Below are positions 1,792 through 63,833 of a DNA stretch of 64,000 nucleotides, in pieces. The stretch is from Candidatus Undinarchaeota archaeon. Its GTDB lineage: Archaea; SpSt-1190; DYHY01; CAZGQF01. The DNA lies in contig CAZGQF010000002.1 in assembly GCA_964527545.1 (NCBI GenBank), forward strand, positions 23,452 to 87,451. Reading direction: 5' to 3'. The position numbers and the translations under genes are program-made. Within the stretch, counting starts at the first letter, position 1. The number at the start of each line of letters is the position of its first letter. The notes under the pieces were generated by a model. That model made no database searches. It saw only the letters and a program-made list of their open reading frames with translations, and was not told the origin of the DNA.

Positions 1792-1880
1792 TGGGCCCGG
1801 AGGGATTCGAACCCCCGATCCACTGGTTTCTTCCGCAAAGACCGAAGCCAGTTGCCCTATCCAGACTAGGCCACGGGCCC
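1792..1880 (-). tRNA. tRNA-Arg (anticodon UCG) with ~14-nt intron after position 37
   Basis: Manual fold of reverse complement: acceptor GGGCCCG/CGGGCCC, D arm GCCT-AGTCTGGATA-GGGC, anticodon stem ACTGG/CCAGT enclosing 21 nt (7-nt loop CUUCGGA plus 14-nt insert), T arm GGGGG-TTCGAAT-CCCTC, discriminator A. Confidence 0.65.
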
Positions 1881-11107: not shown

Positions 11108-11476
11108 TCAGTTCTGGAGTTCTTTGTAGAGTTCCTCTCTCACGGCATCGACTCCGAAGTAGCCCTGCTCCCCCATGAAGAGTTCCAGGTCTTCGACCTT
11201 CTTGAAGTATCTCTCTGCCCAATCTTCTCTGCCGTCTTGGAGTTCTTTCTCTGCCTCTCCCAGAAGGCCCTCAGCTGTCCCTATCACGACGCTGTTGAAG
11301 GTTTTTTTGGCGCCCTCAGGGACCTTGAGCCTCCCGCGGATCTCCTCCACGCGAAGGCCCTTCATCTTCTGCAGCTTCCAGTACGCCTTGTTGAATTTGC
11401 CTTCCCTCTCCGCGCGGAAAGCAGGTGCCAGGAGTCTGGTGTACTGTTCTTGTGTCGCGTTTTCATCCACGTCCAT
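11108..11476 (-). CDS. Hypothetical protein
   Basis: 122-aa ORF directly upstream of the preceding one on the same strand. Confidence 0.4.
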   Translation of the reverse strand: MDVDENATQEQYTRLLAPAFRAEREGKFNKAYWKLQKMKGLRVEEIRGRLKVPEGAKKTFNSVVIGTAEGLLGEAEKELQDGREDWAERYFKKVEDLELFMGEQGYFGVDAVREELYKELQN

Positions 11477-11577
11477 AGTTAGTCATTATACAGTAGTGAC
11501 TTAAATAGCTTACGGTCCAGATTATGGATTAAAGTCCCTTTTCTGGGCCCTAAAGCGCTCGAGCCAGGGCTGGGAAG

Positions 11578-11613
11578 TCCATGGACTGGAGGGATTCAAA
11601 GCGGTCAATGTCC
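11578..11613. repeat. Truncated copy of tRNA-Ala 3' end plus GGTCAATGTCC module
   Basis: CCATGGACTGGAGGG is identical to 11839-11853 in the tRNA-Ala gene; followed by a degenerate T-arm and GGTCAATGTCC, which recurs at 63507-63517. Confidence 0.6.
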
Positions 11614-11716
11614 TGTGACTCCGTCACAGGCTGGAAGGAAACTTCGTTTCCGACATCCCCGCGAGCCTGTGCTGTCTTTGATAGCACCAAGAAATTTTCT
11701 TTGGGGTTGGACAACC

Positions 11717-11743
11717 CCCTAATTGAGCGGAGCTCAATTGGGC
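11717..11743. repeat. Quasi-palindromic motif CCCTAATTGAGCGGAGCTCAATTGGG (copy 1)
   Basis: Inverted repeat ATTGAGC/GCTCAAT; near-identical copy in opposite orientation at 63682-63706; preceded by palindrome GGGGTTGGACAACCCC. Confidence 0.6.
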
Positions 11744-11841
11744 GCAATCGAGCTATATTGGAAACATTGTTTCCTACTATCGTACGAAGCTCTGCTTCGT
11801 AGATGCTCGATTAGCGTTTCTTTGGAAAAGAAAGGGGGCCA

Positions 11842-11915
11842 TGGACTGGAGGGGATTTGAACCCCTGGCCGCCTCGATGCGAACGAGGCGCTCTACCAGA
11901 CTGAGCTACCAGCCC
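11842..11915 (-). tRNA. tRNA-Ala (anticodon CGC)
   Basis: Manual fold: acceptor GGGCTGG with G3:U70, D arm GCTC-AGTCTGGTA-GAGC, anticodon arm CCTCG-UUCGCAU-CGAGG, T arm AGGGG-TTCAAAT-CCCCT, discriminator A; 74 nt. Confidence 0.85.
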
Positions 11916-11994
11916 GTGTGTTTACCTATGCGAGCGCCGTTGGCGAAGCCAACGAGCGCCCCAGCGCCGGCCGATGGGTTGCGGCCGCGTCTGT

Positions 11995-12015
11995 ACCAGA
12001 CTGAGCTACCAGCCC
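11995..12015. repeat. Duplicated 5' segment of tRNA-Ala (21 nt) without a matching 3' half
   Basis: ACCAGACTGAGCTACCAGCCC at 11995-12015 is identical to 11895-11915 (tRNA positions 1-21); downstream sequence is GC-rich and lacks a CCAGCCC/CCAGTCC acceptor strand. Confidence 0.55.
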
Positions 12016-12047
12016 TTGCAGAAATCTCGGCCACGTCGCTTAAAAAA

Positions 12048-13004
12048 CTATAGAGAAGTCGGTGGTTTCAGCCATCTCTCAAGCCAGAGATAGGCGTTCT
12101 CCCAGCTTTTCCTGTCGAAGTGGTGGCCGCCCTCGAACCAGGCAAGCTCGAGGCTGTCTTCCGCGCCTTCCTTTACGTAGGACTCCTCCAGCACTCCGTA
12201 GGCCCTCTCCACAGCCTTCTTGGGGAAGTTCTCGTCCTGCACGGCGGAGACCATCATCATCGGCCTGGGCGCGACCAGGGAGGCCACCTCTGGCAGGTCC
12301 GTTCTTTCGAGCAGGCCTGGGATGTAGGGGAGGAAGCAGTGGTAGACCCGCGTCTCCAGTATCTCTGGAAAGGAGCCCATGGCACAGCTGGCAACGACCG
12401 CCCCTAATCTCTCGTCCAGGGCCGCCGCCATCCAAGCCTGCATCCCGCCGAGCGAGTGGCCGGCCGCGCCTATGCCCTTGACGAACGACAGGGAGGAGAG
12501 GTAGTCCGCACATGAGATGACGTCCTCGACCATAGTCTTGGCGATGCAGGAGCCGTGGAGCAGCGCTCTTGTCGCCTCGAACCTCTCGTCCCCGCCAGGC
12601 AGCCTCTCCTCGCTCGGCGTCACGTTGGGGTCGTGCCTCTCCTCGAAGCAGATGGAGTCGGGCGCGAGTACAGCAAAACCTCGCCGGGCGAGCTCCCTGC
12701 CGAAAGGGATGGAACCGTTCTCTGCGTTGTAGTCTCTCCCGTCCACGGGCAGCCCCATCACCTCGCTCTTCCCGACTTCGTACTGGAGGTCTGCCTGGTG
12801 GAGAGCGATGACAGCCGGCCAGGGCCCCTCCCCCTCCGGAAGGGCGAGGTAGGCGGGGATCTCCCTGTCGGTCTTCAGAAGGAGCTTCTTCAGAGTGAAC
12901 CCTTCCTCGTCTCTCTCCTCGCCCTCCTCGACGGAGAGCTTCTTGTTCCTTCTCAGGCCGCCCATCGCCTTCTCGAGGAAATGTGTCAGCTCTTCTCTCT
13001 CCAT
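12048..13004 (-). CDS. Alpha/beta-hydrolase (dienelactone hydrolase/esterase-like)
   Basis: Nucleophile elbow GHSLGG, C-terminal His; start set at ATG 13004, one nt after the upstream gene stop. Confidence 0.6.
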   Translation of the reverse strand: MEREELTHFLEKAMGGLRRNKKLSVEEGEERDEEGFTLKKLLLKTDREIPAYLALPEGEGPWPAVIALHQADLQYEVGKSEVMGLPVDGRDYNAENGSIPFGRELARRGFAVLAPDSICFEERHDPNVTPSEERLPGGDERFEATRALLHGSCIAKTMVEDVISCADYLSSLSFVKGIGAAGHSLGGMQAWMAAALDERLGAVVASCAMGSFPEILETRVYHCFLPYIPGLLERTDLPEVASLVAPRPMMMVSAVQDENFPKKAVERAYGVLEESYVKEGAEDSLELAWFEGGHHFDRKSWENAYLWLERWLKPPTSL

Positions 13005-13005
13005 T

Positions 13006-14472
13006 TCACACCTCCTCCAGTTCGTAGATGAAAACATTTTCGTCGCCGTAGACTCTCTCAAGGCCTTCAAGCTCCTCGCCGCGGGCCGCCCTGAAGAGCA
13101 GAGTCTTCTCCGCCTTCTCTGTCGGCTCCCAGTCCTTTAGGTAGGGCGAGCTATCTCCGCTCGAGGCGAGGGAGATGGCGTAGAGGAACTTTCTGTCCTG
13201 CTGGGAGACGAGGAGGTGGGAGGCGCCAAGCTCTTTCATCGCTTTCGCAGTCTCCAGCCCTCCCTCCGCCAGCAGGGCGTCCGCCACTTTTCGCACCCTC
13301 TCTTCCGGGTCGCAGAACTCGCACTCGACCTCTCTGAGCTCCTCTTCGCTCATCGCCGCGTACTTGGCGACAGTCTTCAGCACTGCTCTCGAAGGGCCGT
13401 CGATGACGACCTCCCTGCCTGTCATGCCGTGGACCTGCTGGCCTTCATCCCACCAGCCCAGGAAGACAGCGTCGTCCGGCGCCTCGGCCGAGACCCACTT
13501 CAGTGCTGAGAAGAGCTCGTGGTTGACGGGAGCGCGAACTGCCACACCATCTCTCTCATAGGCGATCTCCTGCGTCTCAAGCATCTCCCTGGCCTCCTCG
13601 TCCTTTCTTTCCGTGCGGACTTCGAAGCCTTCTCCGTTTGAGGTTATCTCTACTTCGCCGTTGACCTCGTCGACGTAGACTGGCGCGTCGAACTTGGCGA
13701 GGTTCGCATAGGAGGCGATGGAGAAGAAGACTGCCTCGGGCGAGACGGCATCAAGGAACTCCGGGGAAGAGGCGTCGAGGAGGCCGTGGTGACCGGCCTT
13801 CAGGACGTCGGCGTCGAGCTCCTCGCCAGACGAGAGGAGGCCATCTTCGCACTGGAGGTTGCAGTCCCCTGTCAAGAGAGCAGAGAAGTCGCCGTAGGTC
13901 AGCTTGATGACCAATGAGTTGCGGTTGCCGTTGCCCTCCTCCTCTATCTCCTCCGGCCAGAGGACTCTCATCTCCACGGAGCTGTCCACCCGTATCTCGT
14001 CTCCTCTCTCAAGTTTTCCTTCAGGTTTCTCCCTCATCAGCTTTGCAATCTCGCTTCCCCCCACCACTCCCGCCTCCTCAATGTCGCCGTTGTGGTAGAA
14101 CTTTCTTACTGGAAAGTCCCGCTCGAAGAGGTGCAGGAGGCCCTGGAAGTGGTCGCCGTGCGGGTGTGTCAGCACCACAGCGTCGAGAGAGGCGACCCCC
14201 TTCTCAGCGAGGTGGCCCGTGATGTCGTTCTCACCGCCGTCTACCAGGATCCTCTTTCCATGAGGCGTCGTGATCAGGATCGACTCCCTGACGTCGAGTA
14301 GCGTGATGGTGAGGTTTCCGGCATCTTGGTTTTCCGCAGTTTCAAAACTGTTCTCCACCTCCGCCCCCGGCGACTCTTTCGTGATGCCCGTCTCTTCTGA
14401 TACCTCTATCTGCTCCTCGCCGACACAGCCTGCCGTGAGAATGGCGATCACGAGCAGGAGTTCCCATCTCAT
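13006..14472 (-). CDS. Secreted lipoprotein with metallo-beta-lactamase fold domain
   Basis: Signal peptide with lipobox-like LTAGC; MBL motif VLTHPHGDH and later GHHG; about 200-aa uncharacterised C-terminal region. Confidence 0.6.
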   Translation of the reverse strand: MRWELLLVIAILTAGCVGEEQIEVSEETGITKESPGAEVENSFETAENQDAGNLTITLLDVRESILITTPHGKRILVDGGENDITGHLAEKGVASLDAVVLTHPHGDHFQGLLHLFERDFPVRKFYHNGDIEEAGVVGGSEIAKLMREKPEGKLERGDEIRVDSSVEMRVLWPEEIEEEGNGNRNSLVIKLTYGDFSALLTGDCNLQCEDGLLSSGEELDADVLKAGHHGLLDASSPEFLDAVSPEAVFFSIASYANLAKFDAPVYVDEVNGEVEITSNGEGFEVRTERKDEEAREMLETQEIAYERDGVAVRAPVNHELFSALKWVSAEAPDDAVFLGWWDEGQQVHGMTGREVVIDGPSRAVLKTVAKYAAMSEEELREVECEFCDPEERVRKVADALLAEGGLETAKAMKELGASHLLVSQQDRKFLYAISLASSGDSSPYLKDWEPTEKAEKTLLFRAARGEELEGLERVYGDENVFIYELEEV

Positions 14473-33873: not shown

Positions 33874-36800
33874 TCACTGGGAAGGCGGCGTCCACTGATT
33901 GCCTGTCGTCCCCGGCGAGCTTCCTGTCTCTTCTCCTTTAAACCCCCCGCTGGTGGTGGTGTCTCCTTCTCCCCCACCGGCTTGAGTCTCCTTTTCCAGC
34001 CTGTTCCCCACAGGTATGATCTCTTCCGCCATCAGTATCCCGTTCTCCACTCTCCCCTTCACCATGCAGGACATGTCTGAGAGACCCCCTTCTGAGTAGA
34101 CCTTTATGGAGCCTGAGTCATCTGTCAGGTTGCCGTTGTGCTCGTCGACCGCCTTCAGGTAGCCAGTCAGGTAGACGATTGGGTACTCGTCCGGGCTCTC
34201 GAGGACTTTGGCCACGTTGACACCTTCATCTTTCTTCGTCTTGTAGAGGTAGTAGCCGCCCCCTGCCAGGGCGAGGAGCAGGAGGACTACCGCCGCAATG
34301 ACGACGGGAGAGATGCCCCCTCCCGCCCCCTCCACGTCGACTTCCTCTTCCACCTCCTCGCAGCGGTGGGTGGAGGTGTTGCACTCCTCCCCTTCCGGAC
34401 AGCCGCAGTCCTCGCAGCAGACGTCCTCTTCGCAGAGGCCGTCCCCGCACCTTGGCACTCTCTTGGCGACTGCGGTTGTGGTGATCATGTTCAGGCTCCC
34501 CTGGTCCAGGTCCTCCAAGAACTGGTACCTGAATGTCTTGCCTATTGTGTCGAGCTGATAGGCGAAGACTGGGTCGTCTTCGAAAACTATGGGCTGGTCA
34601 AAGAACCTCAAGCTGTCGGCGTCCCCTGCCAGGTCCTTTGGCACAGTGACGACTAGGAGGGCGTTCTCTTTCGAGCTTCTCAGCTTTGCGCTTATGGTGA
34701 TGGTTGTGTAGTAGTTTGTCTGGCCTCCCACCTCCCACTTCACCACTTCGGCCTCCACCTCGAAGATCACCTCCTCGTTGATGGCCTCCATGTCGGTCTC
34801 GTTGGTGTAGTTCTTCGCCAGCTCCAAGGCGACGTCGCTCGTGGTCAGCATCCTTGGCTCGTAGCTGTCCACGACGCTTGCGGTCCCTATCGAGCTGTCC
34901 AGGCTCGAGATCAGCGTCTCAGCGTCGCTTAACTGTCCTGCCGCTATCATGCTCTCTATCTCCTCGATCACCTCCTGCTCGATCTCAAGCGGGATCCCGA
35001 GGTCCCTTATCTCCTCAATCTTGTCCTTGAGTTCCTGGAAGTCGGTCTCTGCCTGGCTGACCTCCTCTGTCTCGTTGCCCTCTTCCTCTTCCCCCTCCTC
35101 CTCTTCCTCATCGTCGTCGCCCCCTCCGCCTATGAACCCCCCGCCGCCGTTCAGGTCGGGCTCAACGTCGACGGCGACATCGACCTCCCTGTCGCAGGCC
35201 TTCAAGGTAACAGTCCCTTCGAACCCCTCGTCGTCGGTCGGGACGTAGATCTCTATGGTCCTCGACTGGCCGGGTGTGAGGGTTATCTCGTCCTCGAGGT
35301 CGGTATACATCTCTTCCTCGTCCTCGTCGATCTCTACCTCAAGGGTGGTGGCGACGTTGCCTATGTTCTGGACAGACCTCCTGCTGGTCCCGCCCACCGT
35401 TATGTCCTCGTTGTTGAAAGAGCAGTCCAAGATTGTGGGAATGTCAAAGGTCGCGGAAGAGTTGATTGTCTCGCCGCTGCGGGAGAGGGCCGTGTAGCTC
35501 GTCCCGCTGGTCAGGGAGGCGTAGACAGAGTAGGTGCCGGGCGGGTTGGTCCTGTTTATCTTTGTCCTGCTGATGTCGGCGTAGTCCCCGCTGGTCAGGT
35601 CGATGGCCCCGTCCCACGTGACAGGGTATTTTGTGTTGTTGATGACGAGTTCGCCGTCGTCGTCGAAGATCTCGAAGCGGTAGGTCGCAGTCGCAGTCGC
35701 ACCTGTGTTGTTGAAGAATCCCTTCTCTATCTCCACCCAGTCGCCTATCTCAGCCTCGTCCTGGTCCAGCTCTATGGGAACCACCGGCGTGTCGAGCAGT
35801 GTCACCGTGGTCGTGTCTGAGAATGGAGTGTCGAAGTAGAAGGTCCGGGTCATATTGTAGCGGAGTGTGTAGACTCCTGCAGGGTCCGAGATATCGAACT
35901 CGTAGTTGGATGAGAATGTGGTGTTTTCGTAGGGCATTAGGGTATCTGAGTCTGACCTGTCGGTCCTGAGCCCGACGATCTCTGTATCCAACCAGAACGA
36001 GAAACCGTAGTAGCTCTGCAGCACGACCGACAGGTTGAGCGGGTAGGCGACCTCCGCCTTGACAGGAGTGGCCCACTTCACGTCGCTCACGTTCAGCTTT
36101 TTCGTCTCGAACTCCAGGTTGTAGGTGAGCTCCGAATTTGCAGGCATCGTCGCGTTCTCAGTCCAGTTGAGCCAGCTCGGCCAGGAGAACTCGAAGGGGA
36201 CAGCGTCGCCGTTGTAGGTCAGGTCGTAAGGTGTGGTGTTGTAGGTCGGCGCCTCGAAGCTGACAGAGACGTTGTCTATCTCCTTGCTTGCCCTGTTCTC
36301 CAGTGTCAGCTCTTCAACCCAGCTCACGTGAGTCTCGTTTTCGCTTGAGAAAACAGTGTCGGTCTCCTCCGTGAGAGCCGGCGCGGGCAGGTCGTAGGTG
36401 ACGTTGAACTTCCGCGAAGAGCCGGCGCCGAGGAAGAAGACCTCCTTCGCGAAGTCCCCCGTTGTGCTCGACGAGTTGTCGCAGTCGTCGCAGACGGTCC
36501 AGTTGACCCCCCTTATGTTGGTCGCGTCGTGCGGGACAGGAAAGATGGCCTGTATCGTCCCGCCGATGATCAGGTCGTTGACCACTGTGACGTTCTGCGT
36601 CCACTTGATGGGCTCGCCCTCCACTATCTCAGCGTTTCTCCTGTCGGTTCCGTTAACGTTCCTGAGGGAGGTGGTGTTGTAGTCTATGAAATAGTCTCTC
36701 TTCTCGCCCGCAGAGAGCGTCCCCACGTCGAACCAGACAGTGTCGTTGGTGGAGTTCTCAATCTTGTCGTACGCAAGTGGCGTCCCGTCCAGCGTGACCT

Positions 36801-39366
36801 CCTCAACGCTCGAGTTGGCGTCGATCTCGACACTCACGAAGCCGAACTCTGCAGGAGACGCCTTTGAGTTGTTGAGGGAGAGCGTGTGGCGGACGTTGAT
36901 GGTGCTGGGCTGGGGGAAAGGCGGGTTGGAGTAGCCGCGGAACTCTATCTCTTCGCCTCTCGAGAAGTCGTCAGTGTCTATCTCGTAGGTCCCAGTCCAG
37001 ACAGGAGTGCTGTTCCAGTTGCCTGCCGCGTCCCTCACTATGAAGGTGGCGTTGACCTCCGTGGAGTTGGGGAGCGACGAGAAGAACTTGATGCAACGGC
37101 CGTCCTCCACGTTGAGAGTCTCAGGCGTCTGCGCCGCGCCGTCGAAGTAGGCCGTTATGTTGCAATGCGTCGCACCACTATTGTCGTCGCTGACGTTTGC
37201 GTAGAAGACTGGCCTGTCGTTGGCCACCGTTTCGTTGACGGACGGCGAGACGCCTGTCACGTTCGGGTCTGTCCCGTCCACGGCGAGGTCGAGTCCGACA
37301 GTCAGGTTGGAGTAGCTGAAGCTGTCGGTCGCGTTGAAAGAGAGAGTGTGGTCGCCGCTGCCTCCAGGTATCTGGCAGGCGAGCGAGTAGTTGCCGTCAC
37401 CCGCCGAGCTGTCGATCCCTGCGCCGTCGTCCTTGAGCTCCGTCCAGCTCCCGCCGAGGGGAGTCAAGTTGAGTGTGAAGTTGGTGACCAAGCCGATGTC
37501 CTCCACTCTCGCGAAGACCTCGATCCAGTCGCCAGGCTTCACGACTGTGTCGTTGACCATGACGTCCAGTACGTCCGGCGCCGACCTGTCGATGGTGAGG
37601 TTGACCCGCTGGCTTGAGTTGTAGTGGCCGAAGGTGTCGTTGGCGAAAAAGATGATTGTCTGGTTGCCTTCCTCTGCCTCAGGCACGGTGTAGCGGGCAG
37701 AGTGGTTGCCGTCGCCCCCTGCGGCGTCTGGCTGGGAGCCGTCATCAAGAAGGCGGGCAGTGTTGAAGTCAACAATGTGCACGTAGGAGTAGGTTCCCGA
37801 TGCGTCGTAGTAGGTTATCAGCTCGTCAGTGCCGTCACCGTCACTGTCGATGGTCCCTTCCACGTAAAAACTGCTGATTATCTTGTCTGCAGTTAGGTTG
37901 AAGACGACGCTCCTGTTTACGAACGGATCGAAAAACCTTGAGTTGCCATAGTTGTTGCTGTCCGTGTAGACCAGCGTCTCCCTGTTTCCGCCGTAAAAGG
38001 AGCCCTTGCTCTGCGTTGAGGTTGTCAGCTCTCCGAACACGATCGGCGTATCAGCAATCTGTGTCTGGTTGTCGTAGAACTTCGAGTCGAAAATAATCTC
38101 CTTGCTTCCGTCCCCGTCGCTCTCGATGGCGACCAGGGACAACGAACTGGAGACCAACTCTGACGTGTTGTAGTACTCTTGTGTCTGGTTGTCGAAGATG
38201 TGGAGGTAGCTCGTAGTCGCATTCGAGTAGGCGATCTCCCCTGCACCGTCTCCGTCGATGTCGCCGCACACGAACTGCGAGGACTTTATGCTCGTATTCT
38301 CCAAGCGCCCTGTGGCGTTTTCGTAGATCATGACCCATTGTCCTGTTTTGTTCCTGAACAGTATCTCATCCGCACCGTCGCCGTTCACGTCGCAGAGATG
38401 GAGATACCCTGAGGCGTAATCCGTCACTGAATATGTCGTATTGGTCGAGTTGTCGAGGACGGCAACGTAGTAGCTGCTCATGTCTTCCGTGACGTTCAAA
38501 TAGACCACCTCGTTCTCGCCGTCGCCGTTCACGTCCCCGACTTGAGGCACAAATCCGAGCCTGCCGGTAGAGTCTGTCCTGCCGTTCGCAAAGTCCCTTA
38601 TCTCGATGGGAAAGCCAGTGGACCAGCTGCCCTCGGAGACGTTGTTGTAGACAAGTTCGTCCGCACCGTCGCCGTTCACGTCGCCCGATCCAAGCATGGG
38701 TGACCCTGTGTAGGTGAGCACGCTCGTGTTTGTCGATGCATGGTCGAAAGGCATCAACGCCTTGACGCCTTTTACATCACCGTCCGAGTTGTTGGCCATT
38801 GCATAGAGCTCGATGATTGAACCGTTTGTGACCAGCGTCTGGTTGACAGTGGCGTTGACAGTCGGCCAGGTTAGGTTGACATAGGTGTAGTTCTCTGCGT
38901 AGCAGGGCGCGTCTGTCGCGTTGTCCCGGGCGGTCGCGTTCCAGGTCACGTTGCCGTCTTTCCAGGCAGACATGAGGAGGGTTATGTTCAGGTAGTCGCC
39001 GGCGGTCGCATTCGGATAGTTTTCCTTGGGCGTGCAGTTGACTTTCTCCCTGTAGCCGTCGCTGTCCGAGTCCCAGACGCCGCACTCCCAGGCAGTCCCG
39101 TTCGCCTTCCCGGTCTCGTTCGACCACCATGTCGCCTCGGCGTAGGTGACATTGTAGTGCTCTCTCGGCGAGGTGATGTTCGAAAGTTCTGTCATGTTCC
39201 AGGACTCCGGCCCCTCGTTCCAGAGGGTGAAGTTGTAGTAGCGGGGGAGGGCAGACCCCACGTAGGCCGTCTCGTTGACAGTGAGATTTGCCGCGGCCGA
39301 GGCCAAGCCTAGCAGAAAGAGCAGGACCAGACCTTGCTTCAACACACGGAAGCAACTACAGACCAT
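33874..39366 (-). CDS. Giant integrin-like surface glycoprotein (FG-GAP-like repeats, Cys-rich stalk, TM, cytoplasmic tail)
   Basis: Signal peptide from ATG 39366 (track ORF extends to 39678); several D-x-N/D-G-D-G-x-x-E repeats; many N-x-S/T sequons; acidic linker; Cys-rich RCGDGLCEEDVCCEDCGC; TM VVIAAVVLLLLALAGG; about 110-aa tail. Confidence 0.7.
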   Translation of the reverse strand: MVCSCFRVLKQGLVLLFLLGLASAAANLTVNETAYVGSALPRYYNFTLWNEGPESWNMTELSNITSPREHYNVTYAEATWWSNETGKANGTAWECGVWDSDSDGYREKVNCTPKENYPNATAGDYLNITLLMSAWKDGNVTWNATARDNATDAPCYAENYTYVNLTWPTVNATVNQTLVTNGSIIELYAMANNSDGDVKGVKALMPFDHASTNTSVLTYTGSPMLGSGDVNGDGADELVYNNVSEGSWSTGFPIEIRDFANGRTDSTGRLGFVPQVGDVNGDGENEVVYLNVTEDMSSYYVAVLDNSTNTTYSVTDYASGYLHLCDVNGDGADEILFRNKTGQWVMIYENATGRLENTSIKSSQFVCGDIDGDGAGEIAYSNATTSYLHIFDNQTQEYYNTSELVSSSLSLVAIESDGDGSKEIIFDSKFYDNQTQIADTPIVFGELTTSTQSKGSFYGGNRETLVYTDSNNYGNSRFFDPFVNRSVVFNLTADKIISSFYVEGTIDSDGDGTDELITYYDASGTYSYVHIVDFNTARLLDDGSQPDAAGGDGNHSARYTVPEAEEGNQTIIFFANDTFGHYNSSQRVNLTIDRSAPDVLDVMVNDTVVKPGDWIEVFARVEDIGLVTNFTLNLTPLGGSWTELKDDGAGIDSSAGDGNYSLACQIPGGSGDHTLSFNATDSFSYSNLTVGLDLAVDGTDPNVTGVSPSVNETVANDRPVFYANVSDDNSGATHCNITAYFDGAAQTPETLNVEDGRCIKFFSSLPNSTEVNATFIVRDAAGNWNSTPVWTGTYEIDTDDFSRGEEIEFRGYSNPPFPQPSTINVRHTLSLNNSKASPAEFGFVSVEIDANSSVEEVTLDGTPLAYDKIENSTNDTVWFDVGTLSAGEKRDYFIDYNTTSLRNVNGTDRRNAEIVEGEPIKWTQNVTVVNDLIIGGTIQAIFPVPHDATNIRGVNWTVCDDCDNSSSTTGDFAKEVFFLGAGSSRKFNVTYDLPAPALTEETDTVFSSENETHVSWVEELTLENRASKEIDNVSVSFEAPTYNTTPYDLTYNGDAVPFEFSWPSWLNWTENATMPANSELTYNLEFETKKLNVSDVKWATPVKAEVAYPLNLSVVLQSYYGFSFWLDTEIVGLRTDRSDSDTLMPYENTTFSSNYEFDISDPAGVYTLRYNMTRTFYFDTPFSDTTTVTLLDTPVVPIELDQDEAEIGDWVEIEKGFFNNTGATATATYRFEIFDDDGELVINNTKYPVTWDGAIDLTSGDYADISRTKINRTNPPGTYSVYASLTSGTSYTALSRSGETINSSATFDIPTILDCSFNNEDITVGGTSRRSVQNIGNVATTLEVEIDEDEEEMYTDLEDEITLTPGQSRTIEIYVPTDDEGFEGTVTLKACDREVDVAVDVEPDLNGGGGFIGGGGDDDEEEEEGEEEEGNETEEVSQAETDFQELKDKIEEIRDLGIPLEIEQEVIEEIESMIAAGQLSDAETLISSLDSSIGTASVVDSYEPRMLTTSDVALELAKNYTNETDMEAINEEVIFEVEAEVVKWEVGGQTNYYTTITISAKLRSSKENALLVVTVPKDLAGDADSLRFFDQPIVFEDDPVFAYQLDTIGKTFRYQFLEDLDQGSLNMITTTAVAKRVPRCGDGLCEEDVCCEDCGCPEGEECNTSTHRCEEVEEEVDVEGAGGGISPVVIAAVVLLLLALAGGGYYLYKTKKDEGVNVAKVLESPDEYPIVYLTGYLKAVDEHNGNLTDDSGSIKVYSEGGLSDMSCMVKGRVENGILMAEEIIPVGNRLEKETQAGGGEGDTTTSGGFKGEETGSSPGTTGNQWTPPSQ

Positions 39367-39403
39367 TATTAAAGCTTTAAAGGGGCAGAGGGAGTTCGGG
39401 CGG

Positions 39404-39646
39404 GTGAGAGTCGAGGTCAAAGTCAGAACCAGCGCCCAAAAGGAGAGGATTGAGCTTGAGGACGGCCGCCTCGTCGTCTCCCTCAAGGAGCCAGCCAGGA
39501 AGGGAAAGGCCAATCTTGCCCTCGTGAAGCTCCTCGCCGGCAGGGCGGGCTGCTCTTCTGCAGAGGTGGCCTTTGTCAGCGGCCTCTCCTCGCGGAGGAA
39601 AGTACTTGAGTTTCCAGACTGCGAGATAGAGAAGCTGCTCGGATGA
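39404..39646 (+). CDS. YggU-like (DUF167/UPF0235) small protein
   Basis: VEVKVRTSAQKERIE...GKANLALVKLLA...VSGLSSRRKVLEF matches DUF167 pattern; in-frame GTG at 39404 proposed (track ORF from 39275 overlaps the signal-peptide end of the giant gene). Confidence 0.45.
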   Translation: MRVEVKVRTSAQKERIELEDGRLVVSLKEPARKGKANLALVKLLAGRAGCSSAEVAFVSGLSSRRKVLEFPDCEIEKLLG

Positions 39647-39830
39647 CTTTTGGCACGTTCGTGGCAAACCTCCCGCAATACTTATAAATGGCCTTTCTCT
39701 CCTCTCTGCAGAACTCACATCATCAGTTCGCATTCACTGTACATGGGAAGCGCCGGTTAACATTGATGTCTAGGCGCGGTTGCAGGGCAGCTCGGCTGAT
39801 TTTGCAGAGTTCTGAAGAAGGTGAAGAAGA

Positions 39831-55271: not shown

Positions 55272-55377
55272 CTCCCGCCTGCGTCTCCCGCCTTTTTAGT
55301 TTTAACGAGTGACAAGTTTGGCGAGATGTGTTGGGTCTGTGCTCTGCTCCAGAAAGGGTTATATCTCTGGGGTGAGG

Positions 55378-57255
55378 ATGGCGGCCATGAAAAAGGCAGT
55401 CCTCTTTTTGGCCTTGATCCTTTTGACGCCCGCCTTCGCGGAGACAATTAGTGACGCCTGCGGAAACGGCGTGGGATGGAGCGACAATACGGCAGAGCCC
55501 CATTGCGAAACGCAGGACTGCTGCGCCTGGTACCAGACGACACATGTCCACGACCTCGGCGAGATCGCCTCCGGCCAGCTCGAGGTCGAGTTCATGCCCA
55601 GCTTCTCTGCTGGCTGCCAGCCCGGCCCGGGGAGCGGCATCTGGGTCTCCGAAGGCGGCCCGGTTGAAGACGACGAAAGCTGGATGCAGTGGAGCTGGGA
55701 GAAGATCTACACGATCACCGAAACCACGCAGTCTGAAGGGGGCTGGTGGCACAAGTACTCTGAGACGTTCCAGGTCTCAAACACGCGATACGTGAAGGTC
55801 TCCATCGAGAACTGCTACAACGACTACTCCAAAGCCACTCTCTCCGCGGACGAGCCCGCAGCTGAGTGCGGGAACGGCATCATCGAGGAGGGCGAGATGT
55901 GCGAAAGCGACGCGGACTGCTACGAAGGCGAGTGCATCGATTGCCAGTGCTTCGCGTCTACGTCTGTCTGCGGCGACGGCATCTTATCATCAGACGAAGA
56001 GTGCGAGACCGACGCAGACTGTCCAACAGACATGGCCTGTGCAGAGTGCGAGTGCATCGACTCCGTCTGCGGCGACGGCATCCTCTCAGCTGACGAGATG
56101 TGCGAGACAGATGACCACTGTCCGCCGGGCTTGATCTGCGCCGAGTGCGAGTGCATCGAGACAGGCTCTGTCTGCGGCGACGGCATCCTCTCAGCTGACG
56201 AGATGTGCGAGACAGACGACCACTGTCCGCCGGGCTTGATCTGCGCCGAGTGCGAGTGCATCGAGACAGGCTCTGTCTGCGGCGACGGCATCCTCTCAGC
56301 TGACGAGATGTGCGAGACAGACGACCACTGTCCGCCGGGCTTGATCTGCGCCGAGTGCGAGTGCATCGAGACAGGTCCTGTCTGCGGCGACGGAGTGATA
56401 GAGGGAGAAGAGGAGTGCGAGTACGATTACGACTGTTTGGAAGGCGAGGAGTGCGACAACTGCGTCTGTGAGCCGTTTGAGCCGGTCTGCGGCGACGGCA
56501 TCCTCTCGTCAGACGAGGAGTGCGAAGACGATGGAGACTGCGACCAGGGCGAGTTCTGCGAGAACTGCGAGTGCGAGTCTCCTGTTTGCGGCGACGGAGT
56601 GATAGAGGGTTGGGAGGACTGCGAAGGCGACTGGGACTGCATGGAGACCGGCGAGACCTGCATAGACTGCAGCTGCATCCACACAGGCTCTGTCTGCGGC
56701 GACGGCGTGATAGAGGGAGAAGAGGAGTGTGAGTACGATTACGACTGTCTGGAAGGCGAGGAGTGCGACAACTGCGTCTGCGAGGAAGCAGGTCCTGTCT
56801 GCGGAAACGGCATCGTGGAAGCGGGGGAGACTTGCGAGAGCGACATGGACTGCGCCGGCGACTTCTACTGCGACAACTGTGAGTGCAAGCCGATTGCCCC
56901 CACGCCGGAAGAGGGGGTGGGCCAAGAGGAGCCAGTTAGGTGTCCGGGCAGGCCGGACTGCGGCGACGGCATACTCTCCGCTGACGAAGAGTGCGAGTCG
57001 GATGGCGACTGCATGGCTCCTTTCTCGTACTGCAGCTGCTGCGAGTGCCTGTCGACCTGCGGCGACGGCGACGTCGACGCGGGGGAGGAGTGCGAGTCGG
57101 ACCTTCACTGTGGAGAAGGTAGTGAGTGCGTCGGCTGCAGGTGCGTGAGGGAGGGGGTCGGCGGGGGTTCCGGACAGACCGAACAGCTCAACAGGATAGC
57201 TGAACTCTTGGAGGAGCTGATCTCCATACTGAGGGGCCTTTTCGGCGGTCAGTAG
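55378..57255 (+). CDS. Secreted cysteine-rich repeat protein (CGDG-x-EECE-x-D-x-DC repeats)
   Basis: Signal peptide MAAMKKAVLFLALILLTPAFA; about 12 repeats of approx 35 aa each beginning (V)CGDG; start at ATG 55378. Confidence 0.65.
   Translation: MAAMKKAVLFLALILLTPAFAETISDACGNGVGWSDNTAEPHCETQDCCAWYQTTHVHDLGEIASGQLEVEFMPSFSAGCQPGPGSGIWVSEGGPVEDDESWMQWSWEKIYTITETTQSEGGWWHKYSETFQVSNTRYVKVSIENCYNDYSKATLSADEPAAECGNGIIEEGEMCESDADCYEGECIDCQCFASTSVCGDGILSSDEECETDADCPTDMACAECECIDSVCGDGILSADEMCETDDHCPPGLICAECECIETGSVCGDGILSADEMCETDDHCPPGLICAECECIETGSVCGDGILSADEMCETDDHCPPGLICAECECIETGPVCGDGVIEGEEECEYDYDCLEGEECDNCVCEPFEPVCGDGILSSDEECEDDGDCDQGEFCENCECESPVCGDGVIEGWEDCEGDWDCMETGETCIDCSCIHTGSVCGDGVIEGEEECEYDYDCLEGEECDNCVCEEAGPVCGNGIVEAGETCESDMDCAGDFYCDNCECKPIAPTPEEGVGQEEPVRCPGRPDCGDGILSADEECESDGDCMAPFSYCSCCECLSTCGDGDVDAGEECESDLHCGEGSECVGCRCVREGVGGGSGQTEQLNRIAELLEELISILRGLFGGQ
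56065..56379 (+). repeat. Three near-perfect 105-bp tandem repeats inside the Cys-rich protein gene
   Basis: Unit GTCTGCGGCGACGGCATCCTCTCAGCTGACGAGATGTGCGAGACAGA(T/C)GACCACTGT...ATCGAGACAGGCTCT begins at 56065, 56170 and 56275; one mismatch between copies. Confidence 0.85.
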
Positions 57256-63008: not shown

Positions 63009-63377
63009 CTAGAATCGCCTGAAGCTGCGCGGGTTCTGGACGTGCTTGTCGGAGACGTTGTTCTCGGTGTTGACCTCCTCCAGCTTCTCCTCCGACGGCT
63101 TCATGATCCCCCTCCTACCGAGGCTCAGCCTCATGGAGTTCCTGAAGACGTTGACGTAGGCGTGCTCGATGTCGTAGGTCTCCCCTATCTCCGCCTCCTT
63201 TATCGACTCGTTCCAGAGGGAGAGGATTATGGCGCCTGTCTCGTCGCCCACCAGGAACTCTGCCACGGTGAGCTGTTCGCCCCTCTTCGAGGTGACTTCC
63301 CTCTCATCGAGCTTCTCTACGATCTTGACATTCATGTCGACCCCTCGCGAGGCCGGGTTCAGTTCTTCGACTTTCAT
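63009..63377 (-). CDS. OB-fold nucleic-acid-binding protein (SSB/RPA-like)
   Basis: Single approx 120-aa OB-fold-like pattern (VDMNVKIVEK...AEFLVGDETGAIILSLWNE). Confidence 0.45.
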   Translation of the reverse strand: MKVEELNPASRGVDMNVKIVEKLDEREVTSKRGEQLTVAEFLVGDETGAIILSLWNESIKEAEIGETYDIEHAYVNVFRNSMRLSLGRRGIMKPSEEKLEEVNTENNVSDKHVQNPRSFRRF

Positions 63378-63472
63378 TCCTACTCGTCCCGCCTCAAAGC
63401 CGCGAGTTTAAAATGGTTTTGTGGCCCCTCACACTTGTCCGTGGGCAAGCGCGTGGCTTGATTGGGCCGCCT

Positions 63473-63495
63473 TGAAAACAGGAGCGCCGGGGATT
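63473..63495. repeat. Direct repeat 1 of tRNA-Ser 3' end plus trailer (23 nt identical to 63734-63756)
   Basis: TTGAAAACAGGAGCGCCGGGGAT occurs at 63473 and again overlapping the tRNA-Ser 3' end; followed by GGTCAATGTCC, shared with the tRNA-Ala locus. Confidence 0.7.
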
Positions 63496-63606
63496 GGATT
63501 CGCAGAGGTCAATGTCCCCTTCACAGCCTATCCTATCTTCGCTTCGCTCGATAGGAATCGATCCAATGGAGTTTCTTTCCTCTGCGGAGAGGGCCATATT
63601 AGGAAA

Positions 63607-63623
63607 GGAGCGCCGGGGATGGG
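63607..63623. repeat. Direct repeat 2 of tRNA-Ser 3' end (17 nt identical to 63742-63758)
   Basis: GGAGCGCCGGGGATGGG identical to the acceptor/T-stem segment of tRNA-Ser. Confidence 0.65.
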
Positions 63624-63681
63624 GTTCAAAGCGCCCTTTTTCTTTGAAAAGAAACCCAAATTGAACAGAGTTCAATTGGGC

Positions 63682-63706
63682 CCCATTGAGCTCCGCTCAA
63701 TTAGGG
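63682..63706. repeat. Quasi-palindromic motif CCCATTGAGCTCCGCTCAATTAGGG (copy 2)
   Basis: Reverse-complement match to 11717-11743; preceded by palindrome TTGAACAGAGTTCAA. Confidence 0.6.
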
Positions 63707-63745
63707 AGTCCCGCCTGCCAAAAAGAAACATATTGAAAACAGGAG

Positions 63746-63833
63746 CGCCGGGGATGGGATTTGAACCCATGTGAGACTGACGCCTCACGAGCTTTCCAGG
63801 CTCGCGCCTTAGACCGGACTTGGCTACCCCGGC
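63746..63833 (-). tRNA. tRNA-Ser (anticodon GGA)
   Basis: Manual fold: acceptor GCCGGGG/CCCCGGC, anticodon arm CGAGC-CUGGAAA-GCUCG, long variable arm GTGAG...CTCAC, T arm ATGGG-TTCAAAT-CCCAT, discriminator G; 88 nt. Confidence 0.8.

Follow-up and report, generated by a model that had tools for sequence, protein, structure and literature searches.

Here we describe short, gene-less DNA inserts at two transfer RNA (tRNA) genes of Candidatus Undinarchaeota archaeon, found in a 64,000-nucleotide stretch of contig CAZGQF010000002.1 (positions 23,452 to 87,451; hereafter the window, whose own numbering is used throughout). At both genes, tRNA-Ala(CGC) (locus A) and tRNA-Ser(GGA) (locus B), DNA is enclosed between exact direct repeats of a tRNA end, and the enclosed DNA has arms, palindromes and inverted half-sites in common between the loci. 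With moderate confidence, we read the inserts as relics flanked by attachment (att) sites, or as miniature derivatives, of one family of tRNA-integrating elements. Below we lay out the evidence for this reading, the observations that sit poorly with it, and the other explanations that the same sequences invite.

The duplicated tRNA ends are the first line of evidence. An initial annotation of the window had noticed a shared quasi-palindromic module lying, at each locus, between the tRNA gene and a truncated copy of its 3’ end; that arrangement is borne out by exact direct repeats of 15, 18 and 23 nt (Table 1). In each exact repeat, one copy overlaps the 3’-distal or 5’-distal end of a tRNA; the 15-nt Ala repeat has exactly two zero-mismatch matches in the window, and no additional copy of any of the four tRNA-end repeats occurs there. 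Since direct repeats of tRNA ends are a signature of site-specific integration, the annotation’s recombination-type option (recombinase sites or a miniature element) points the right way, and the inserts are indeed bounded by such repeats and related at the two loci. The part of that option that fails is the terminal repeats: the palindromes stand back from the insert ends by at least 26 nt at locus B and by ~100 nt at locus A, and by inspection the two ends of an insert are not reverse-complementary to one another, so that terminal inverted repeats are absent. The repeat lengths lend further support to integration, as 15-23 nt fits archaeal att sites, which measure 8-26 bp in Thaumarchaeota (PMC6563490) and have a 14-bp core in SNJ2 (PMC5861418). 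From start to start, proximal and distal repeats are spaced 260 nt apart at tRNA-Ala and 261 nt apart at tRNA-Ser, with content that is only partly colinear.

The 5’ end of tRNA-Ala is duplicated as well. A TATA-like box (TTTTTTAAG, 12038-12046) stands ~27 nt upstream of the 5’ fragment, not of the complete gene, which makes it probable that the tRNA-Ala transcript starts with a leader of 100 nt. A split or permuted tRNA built from the 5’ and 3’ Ala fragments was considered and ruled out, as the middle of the tRNA is missing. Unit A (the insert between the two Ala 3’ repeats), the Ala 5’ fragment and the tRNA are all reproduced in contigs assembled separately from run SRR15425350 (L001 and L058), with the 78-nt insert beside the 5’ fragment also present in L058; because these separate contigs agree, the arrangement is not an artefact of one assembly. 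The two Logan contigs end at 11841 (L058) and 11846 (L001), at the junction of the tRNA-Ala 3’ end with unit A, where they overlap by 6 nt; this could be a branch in the assembly graph (population heterogeneity) or merely coverage.

The second line of evidence is the kinship of the inserted DNA at the two loci. In tRNA sense, the Ala fragment reads ...GGACATTGACC-GCTTTGAAT-CCCTCCAGTCCATGG, the distal Ser fragment ...GGACATTGACC-TCTGCGAAT-CCAATCCCCGGCG... and the middle Ser fragment ...GGGC-GCTTTGAAC-CCCATCCCCGGCG..., the upstream arm GGACATTGACC being common to fragments of two different tRNAs. Likewise, GGTCAATGTCC recurs exactly at 11603 and 63507 and TTCAAAGCG exactly at 11595 and 63625, each in an equivalent place beside the tRNA fragments; the Ala and middle Ser fragments have the same T-loop change, TTCAAAT to TTTGAA(T/C); and the tRNA-proximal insert ends at both loci begin with a TTTCTTTT run. 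Since the same arm and the same T-loop change are found at two different tRNAs, and a local duplication would carry each tRNA’s own T-arm, the sequences argue that the fragments derive from related inserted DNA and not from local duplication or slippage. Past the distal repeats, the chromosomal flanks are unrelated between the loci. Insert arms (P/P’) that are alike beside flanks (B’) that differ are the pattern expected of attL-element-attR junctions from related elements. Units A and B align at their ends and around their palindromes; elsewhere, insertions and the inversion of a 46-nt block make the comparison a mosaic.

Within the inserts, the shared module is present at both loci, ending in unit A at 11742 (26 nt) and not at 11743 as first drawn. 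This 26-nt quasi-palindrome is the best conserved internal piece of the insert family. The B copy has 22 consecutive bases identical to the reverse complement of the A copy and, read from 63681, is one A>C substitution away from the 26-nt form; blastn-short aligns the two modules over 32 nt at 94% (E ~1e-7), and the stretches 11714-11759 and 63664-63709 (46 nt, 85%) constitute the longest inverted repeat in the window. Allowing at most two mismatches, ATTGAGCNNNGCTCAAT has three matches against 0.21 expected, a count reached by none of 100 shuffles. A perfect palindrome had been described ahead of each module; it stands at locus A, and at locus B the supposed TTGAACAGAGTTCAA palindrome belongs to a second copy of the module itself, the third of the ATTGAGCNNNGCTCAAT matches, whose arms differ by G>A on one side and, in compensation, by C>T on the opposite side, so that the palindrome is preserved.

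Each module consists of inverted half-sites of 11-12 nt, CC(C)(T/A)AAT(T/C)GA(G/A)C, around a 3-nt centre. The core AATYGARC has seven matches in 64 kb, which is the number expected by chance; all seven (11721+, 11732-, 11746+, 11805-, 63659+, 63670-, 63695-) fall inside the two units and none in other intergenic regions, an association with the two tRNA loci that had been suspected for the module and that holds throughout the window. Two further blocks reported as shared are likewise present at both loci, namely TTTCTTTG(G)AAAAGAAA, a palindrome, and GCTCGAT(T)AG, a variant half-site. The internal order of the inserts differs between the two loci, and the 46-nt block with its two palindromes is inverted; the orientation of the module relative to the tRNA is opposite at the two loci. 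In the predicted fold of unit A, the half-site at 11743-11753 pairs with that at 11805-11816, enclosing two other hairpins.

None of the inserts contains a credible open reading frame (ORF). Palindromes, by comparison, are concentrated in them: the bin 11500-12000 is the densest in perfect palindromes of all 500-nt bins of the window, and palindromes with a stem of at least 7 bp and a 3-nt centre number seven in the ~720 nt of the loci versus five in the other 63 kb. In all seven the centre is made up of purines alone or of pyrimidines alone (GGA, GAA, AGA or complements) and is mostly closed by C:G, compared with 0/5 outside and a background frequency of 0.355 for such triplets; the purine loops lie on either strand, four each. 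That purine triloops are shared by otherwise unrelated stems suggests that hairpin formation may matter instead of or besides protein binding.

We propose that site-specific integration took place at both tRNA genes, in which case a repaired tRNA would have been left beside the inserted DNA and a displaced copy of its end on the far side (attL-insert-attR). What remains today may be the joined end-arms of decayed elements, akin to the cis-mobilizable elements (CIMEs) of bacteria, or natively miniature, non-autonomous elements. The module and its variant half-sites would then have been bound by a dimeric protein encoded by the element, perhaps an integrase accessory or arm-binding factor, a role proposed in virus SNJ2 for the MarR-like Orf3; or else the palindromes may be hairpin-forming signals. 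A winged-helix accessory protein has been proposed to bind the arms in archaeal integrating elements (PMC5861418, PMC6563490). Integration in archaea is usually 3’-distal and more rarely 5’-distal, and arrays arise by re-use of the site (PMC6563490, PMC5861418), while bacterial CIMEs keep attL and attR, lose their genes and accrete in tandem at one tRNA end (PMC5704250). Among 34 ORFs scanned with Pfam across the 64 kb, there is no integrase, transposase, Cas1 or HUH enzyme, and the 78-245 nt of the inserts are too short to accommodate a gene; since the DNA between the loci is ordinary chromosome and none of these ORFs encodes an integrase or transposase, the units are non-autonomous. In the present chromosome, the inserts are probably without host function, except in supplying a T-run after the tRNA.

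Several observations weigh against integrated relics. We found neither an integrase nor an empty site, a circular junction or a full-length relative, in an examination that covered 64 kb, a part of the genome. All four inserts are tiny (78-245 nt), which is odd for random decay, and the internal order differs, with the 46-nt block inverted, an extra middle att copy in B and extra hairpins in A. The T-loops of the fragments differ from that of the tRNA, so the usual crossover sublocation in the T-loop does not fit; the palindromes, with their 3-nt centres, are too tightly spaced for tyrosine-recombinase core sites; and an all-purine, C:G-closed centre on different arms speaks for hairpin structure and not for protein recognition of the double strand. 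Searches of IMG/VR and of phage and plasmid collections brought up nothing related: IMG/VR scans with the palindrome, a degenerate palindrome, the shared arm, the Ser core and the Ala core gave chance matches only, and in blastn searches of both units against phage and plasmid collections only the tRNA matched. Protein searches with the flanking genes and a metagenome scan returned no close relative and no synteny, the nearest being at 42-68% protein identity. The closest relative of the ligase is 68% identical, and the named relatives at ~50% belong to Altiarchaeales, Undinarchaeales, Woesearchaeota and ‘archaeon’; all four window proteins that were looked up are singletons at 90% identity, the lineage being poorly sampled. 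In L066, a distant relative, the tRNA genes that were observed lack units of this kind.

The size of the inserts bears most directly on a narrower proposal, which we consider unlikely but worth stating: that these are natively miniature, gene-less elements, each a ~245-nt attP region that would excise as a ~260-nt circle and be moved in trans by a tRNA-specific integrase encoded elsewhere. A period of 260/261 nt at two tRNAs, together with the small size of every insert, is what miniature elements would lead one to expect, and random decay accounts for it poorly. The neighbouring ends of the two Logan contigs at the tRNA-Ala junction likewise leave room for such elements. Repeat-insert-repeat arrays would grow by repeated use of the tRNA end, and the array of purine-triloop hairpins would be the part that binds the machinery. 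Excision at tRNA-Ala would be predicted to leave an empty site with ...CCCTCCAGTCCATGG joined to ACTTCCCAGCC, and a circle with the junction ...GGACATTGACCGCTTTGAAT-CCCTCCAGTCCATGG-CCCCCTTTCTTTTCC.

A doubtful alternative to integrated relics takes the palindromes for host operators, the transcription-factor sites of the initial annotation, at which a dimeric transcription factor of the archaeon would control the genes that follow downstream (an Ssb-like oligonucleotide-binding (OB)-fold gene at 63009-63377 and a 122-aa gene at 11108-11476), with the tRNA fragments as unrelated debris. The half-site architecture is that of a dimeric site whose symmetry has been kept through a compensating change, and each unit has a minus-strand gene downstream of it. 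In archaea, operators usually overlap or adjoin the transcription factor B recognition element (BRE)/TATA region or the start site, whereas the TATA-like boxes of the genes in question (~11499-11507 and ~63406-63414) have these sites ~220-290 nt upstream. Moreover, both the motif and an upstream tRNA are missing from the more distant relatives of the OB-fold gene, and operators leave the confinement between tRNA-end repeats and the shared arms unexplained.

About as doubtful is an origin as host repeats of the repetitive extragenic palindromic (REP) or bacterial interspersed mosaic element (BIME) kind, mosaics of mobile palindromic units moved by a REP-associated tyrosine transposase (RAYT)-type or IS200-type enzyme acting on single-stranded hairpins. 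The clustering of different palindromes in mixed order and orientation (seven in ~720 nt as against five in 63 kb) speaks for it, as do the inversion of the 46-nt block between the loci and the purine or pyrimidine triplet centres, mostly C:G-closed, of 7/7 palindromes; such loops stabilise DNA mini-hairpins, for example GCGAAGC. An interspersed bacterial palindrome with the same arms, found in Desulfobacterales, is a further point in favour. It emerged from a motif scan (query ATTGAGCNNNGCTCAATTAGGG) of 185,579 species-representative genomes, a set without the source genome, which gave 23 loci, nearly all of them a multi-copy intergenic palindrome of Desulfobacterales metagenome-assembled genomes, ACCTAATTGAGC-N3-GCTCAATTAGGGT; the exact-type palindrome is absent from other archaea in this set. 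The Desulfobacterales palindrome is not near tRNAs, belongs to no Rfam family and has nothing beyond the palindrome in common with the window units, and we treat the resemblance as coincidence or convergence, not homology. The bacterial copies lie in contigs L029-L051 (e.g., L040 4211-4232, L030 757-778, L034 940-966), often preceded by ccaatacc/aataccc repeats and in L040 directly after a ybeY-like gene. Against host repeats stand the confinement of the half-sites to the two tRNA loci within the 64 kb, the lack of a RAYT or TnpA among the ORFs tested, and the tRNA-end repeats with their adjoining shared arm, which such repeats leave unexplained.

That the units are structured non-coding RNAs or signals for processing, sharing a transcript with the tRNAs or lying next to them, strikes us as improbable, although unit A folds far better than its shuffles (z = -5.6) and one stem contains a compensating change. 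Unit B folds no better than shuffles (z = -1.46), relative to the tRNA, the module faces opposite ways at the two loci, and the purine loops fall on both strands. Terminator-like T-rich runs stand directly 3’ of both tRNAs (TTTCTTTT; TGTTTTC and TTTCTTTTT), and in Rfam searches only the tRNA passed the gathering threshold, with nothing credible at E <= 5; the processing signals entertained by the initial annotation are hence disfavoured on the same grounds.

Still less probable is a casposon-type (Cas1-like) insertion or a classical MITE (miniature inverted-repeat transposable element), where the repeats would be target-site duplications and the insert a solo terminal repeat or a miniature transposon. 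Casposons target tRNA 3’ ends with duplications of 14-15 bp (in family 2, which targets tRNAs), integrate in tandem and leave solo terminal repeats (PMC4779613), and the 15-nt Ala repeat at a tRNA 3’ end, as well as the repeat-insert-repeat-insert-repeat appearance of locus B, would suit them. The absence of terminal inverted repeats leads us to reject both: neither end of an insert repeats the other in inverted form, and what the distal ends share is a directional arm. In addition, the Ser repeats are 18 and 23 nt long, no Cas1 or PolB is present among the ORFs tested, and repeats that are 15-23 nt long and tRNA-derived speak against a MITE. Chance similarity or an assembly artefact, for which it might be said that just two loci are known, is scarcely credible given the motif count (0/100 shuffles), the E-value of ~1e-7, several independent shared blocks at equivalent positions and the same sequence in separately assembled contigs. 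A replication origin with GGAAAC-type boxes was also considered and set aside; an AT-rich unwinding region is lacking, and the ORFs tested include no orc1/cdc6.

Table 1. Features of the two tRNA loci (window coordinates; strand as given, with a point for features without strand)
Feature	Position	Strand	Description
Ala 3’ repeat	11579-11593 = 11839-11853	-	exact direct repeat, 15 nt, offset 260
Proximal Ala repeat, att-core-like	11839-11853	-	last 12 nt of tRNA-Ala plus 3 nt
Ser 3’ distal repeat	63472-63494 = 63733-63755	-	exact, 23 nt (29 nt with 1 mismatch), offset 261
Proximal Ser repeat	63733-63755	-	last 10 nt of tRNA-Ser plus 13 nt of trailer
Ser 3’ middle repeat	63606-63623 = 63741-63758	-	exact, 18 nt, offset 135
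Ala 5’ repeat	11994-12015 = 11894-11915	-	exact, 22 nt, tRNA positions 1-22, offset 100
Truncated tRNA-Ala 3’ copy	11579-11603	-	15-nt repeat plus T-loop-like stretch, TTCAAAT to TTTGAAT
Middle truncated tRNA-Ser 3’ copy	63606-63633	-	18-nt repeat plus T-loop-like GTTCAAAGCG
Distal truncated tRNA-Ser 3’ copy	63472-63517	-	23-nt repeat plus shared arm ...GGTCAATGTCC
Insert arm next to distal Ala repeat	11595-11613	-	tRNA sense GGACATTGACCGCTTTGAA; common to locus B
Unit A, gene-less insert, 245 nt	11594-11838	.	between the two Ala repeats
tRNA-Ser inserts, two pieces of ~110 nt in tandem	63495-63605; 63624-63732
GC-rich insert, 78 nt	11916-11993	.	between Ala 5’ fragment and tRNA; hairpin CGTTGGC-GAA-GCCAACG at 11938-11954
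A module CCCTAATTGAGCGGAGCTCAATTGGG	11717-11742	.	quasi-palindrome CCCTAATTGAGC-GGA-GCTCAATTGGG: inverted half-sites, 3-nt centre
B copy of module, inverted, 25 nt	63682-63706	.	palindrome CCCATTGAGC-TCC-GCTCAATTAGGG
Second B copy, CCCAAATTGAACAGAGTTCAATTGGG	63655-63680	.	palindrome CCCAAATTGAAC-AGA-GTTCAATTGGG
Variant half-site CGCAATCGAGC	11743-11753	+	from AATYGARC scan; inverted partner of 11805-11816
Variant half-site, minus-strand CGCTAATCGAGC	11805-11816	-	GCTCGATTAG block of the initial annotation
Degenerate half-site, minus-strand TCCTATCGAGC	63546-63556	-	inside hairpin CCTATC...GATAGG; GCTCGATAGG block of the initial annotation
Perfect palindrome GGGGTTGGACAACCCC	11703-11718	.	abuts A module
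Perfect hairpin CCTGTGAC-TCC-GTCACAGG	11612-11630	.	related CTGTGA.GG stretch at locus B
Perfect hairpin TACGAAGC-TCT-GCTTCGTA	11783-11801	.
Palindrome TTTCTTT-GGA-AAAGAAA	11817-11833	.	common to locus B; in tRNA sense, T-run directly after tRNA-Ala
Palindrome TTTCTTTGAAAAGAAA	63639-63654	.	common to locus A
tRNA-Ala(CGC), complete	11842-11915	-	ARAGORN; Rfam tRNA 67.3 bits
tRNA-Ser(GGA), complete	63746-63833	-	ARAGORN; Rfam

The surroundings of the two loci are unremarkable. ARAGORN and Rfam place three tRNA genes in the window, all on the minus strand. The third, at 1792-1880 (-), contains an intron and was left unnamed by ARAGORN; by eye, its anticodon loop can be read as CT-TCG-G followed by an intron of 14 nt and an A, giving tRNA-Arg(TCG), and the next gene begins ~5 nt past its 3’ end, with neither insert nor duplicated end. 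The 52 kb separating the loci, like the flanks, is ordinary archaeal chromosome of even composition, with genes for an ATP-dependent DNA ligase, DUF2070, carbamoyl-phosphate synthase, aspartate/ornithine carbamoyltransferase, pyruvate:ferredoxin oxidoreductase, HerA-like, Ogg and Toprim proteins, and transporters; a PHROGs scan of the unannotated neighbour proteins gave no matches and no viral families. The possibility that these 52 kb are one integrated element is ruled out by the housekeeping genes, the even composition and the two different tRNAs. Beside tRNA-Ala, a dienelactone-hydrolase-like gene (12048-13070, -) has its best non-self relatives (~40-44% identity) in Chloroflexota, not archaea, which suggests that it may have been acquired horizontally. 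Elsewhere in the window, an ORF at 55309-57255 (+) contains twelve or so tandem repeats of 99-105 nt (55860-57116) that encode a Cys-rich unit of ~35 aa (CGDG...EECE..D.DC), and its product is probably a secreted or surface repeat protein; the 1934-aa ORF at 33874-39678 (-), with just a weak FG-GAP repeat match and with internal repeats (38337-39075), resembles a surface protein of giant size.

Read as relics, the inserts are a neat, ordinary footprint that mobile elements have left at tRNA genes in an archaeal lineage with sparse sampling, of help chiefly in annotating such loci and in recognising att sites. If they were natively miniature elements instead, no smaller integrase-dependent mobile DNAs would be known in archaea, and they would be natural repeat-insert arrays growing at a tRNA end, with a bearing on how arrays like CRISPR may have started. 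Either way, the half-site array offers a concrete DNA target in the search for a cognate protein.

Among the known systems that come closest are archaeal tyrosine-integrase elements (SNJ2, SNJ2-type and thaumarchaeal), which have a core of 14-26 bp over the 3’-distal part of a tRNA, P/P’ arms conserved among relatives, arrays built by re-use of the site, and occasional 5’-distal integration (PMC5861418, PMC6563490). Unlike those elements, the inserts described here have no integrase or other genes between the repeats, measure 78-245 nt where theirs measure kilobases, and have no autonomous counterpart that we found. CIMEs of Firmicutes, decayed forms of integrative and conjugative or integrative and mobilizable elements (ICEs or IMEs), similarly combine att repeats at a tRNA 3’ end with a lack of recombination genes and with tandem accretion (PMC5704250); they are bacterial, however, usually kilobases long and derived from a known ICE, whereas here the host is an archaeon, the inserts are ~100-250 nt, and the collections searched hold no matching autonomous element. 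Remnants of casposons resemble the inserts in their tRNA 3’ end target, 14-15-bp duplication (at the Ala locus), tandem insertions and lack of genes (PMC4779613), and differ in the terminal inverted repeats that are missing here, in the 18-23 nt of the Ser repeats and in Cas1, of which there was none among the ORFs tested. With REP/BIME clusters, the loci have in common mosaics of short palindromes of varying order and orientation, and arms identical to those of the Desulfobacterales palindrome CCTAATTGAGC-N3-GCTCAATTAGG; the archaeal copies, unlike the bacterial ones, which are unlinked to tRNAs, are confined within the 64 kb to inserts bounded by tRNA ends. The rtT repeats of the E. coli tyrT operon are tandem 178-bp units after a tRNA, each with a copy of the tRNA 3’ end, and are co-transcribed with it. 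Here, by contrast, the inserts are not copies of each other, terminator-like T-runs intervene, and there is no match to the RtT family of Rfam. On the reading preferred here, the case is a variant of the already known relics of tRNA-integrated elements.

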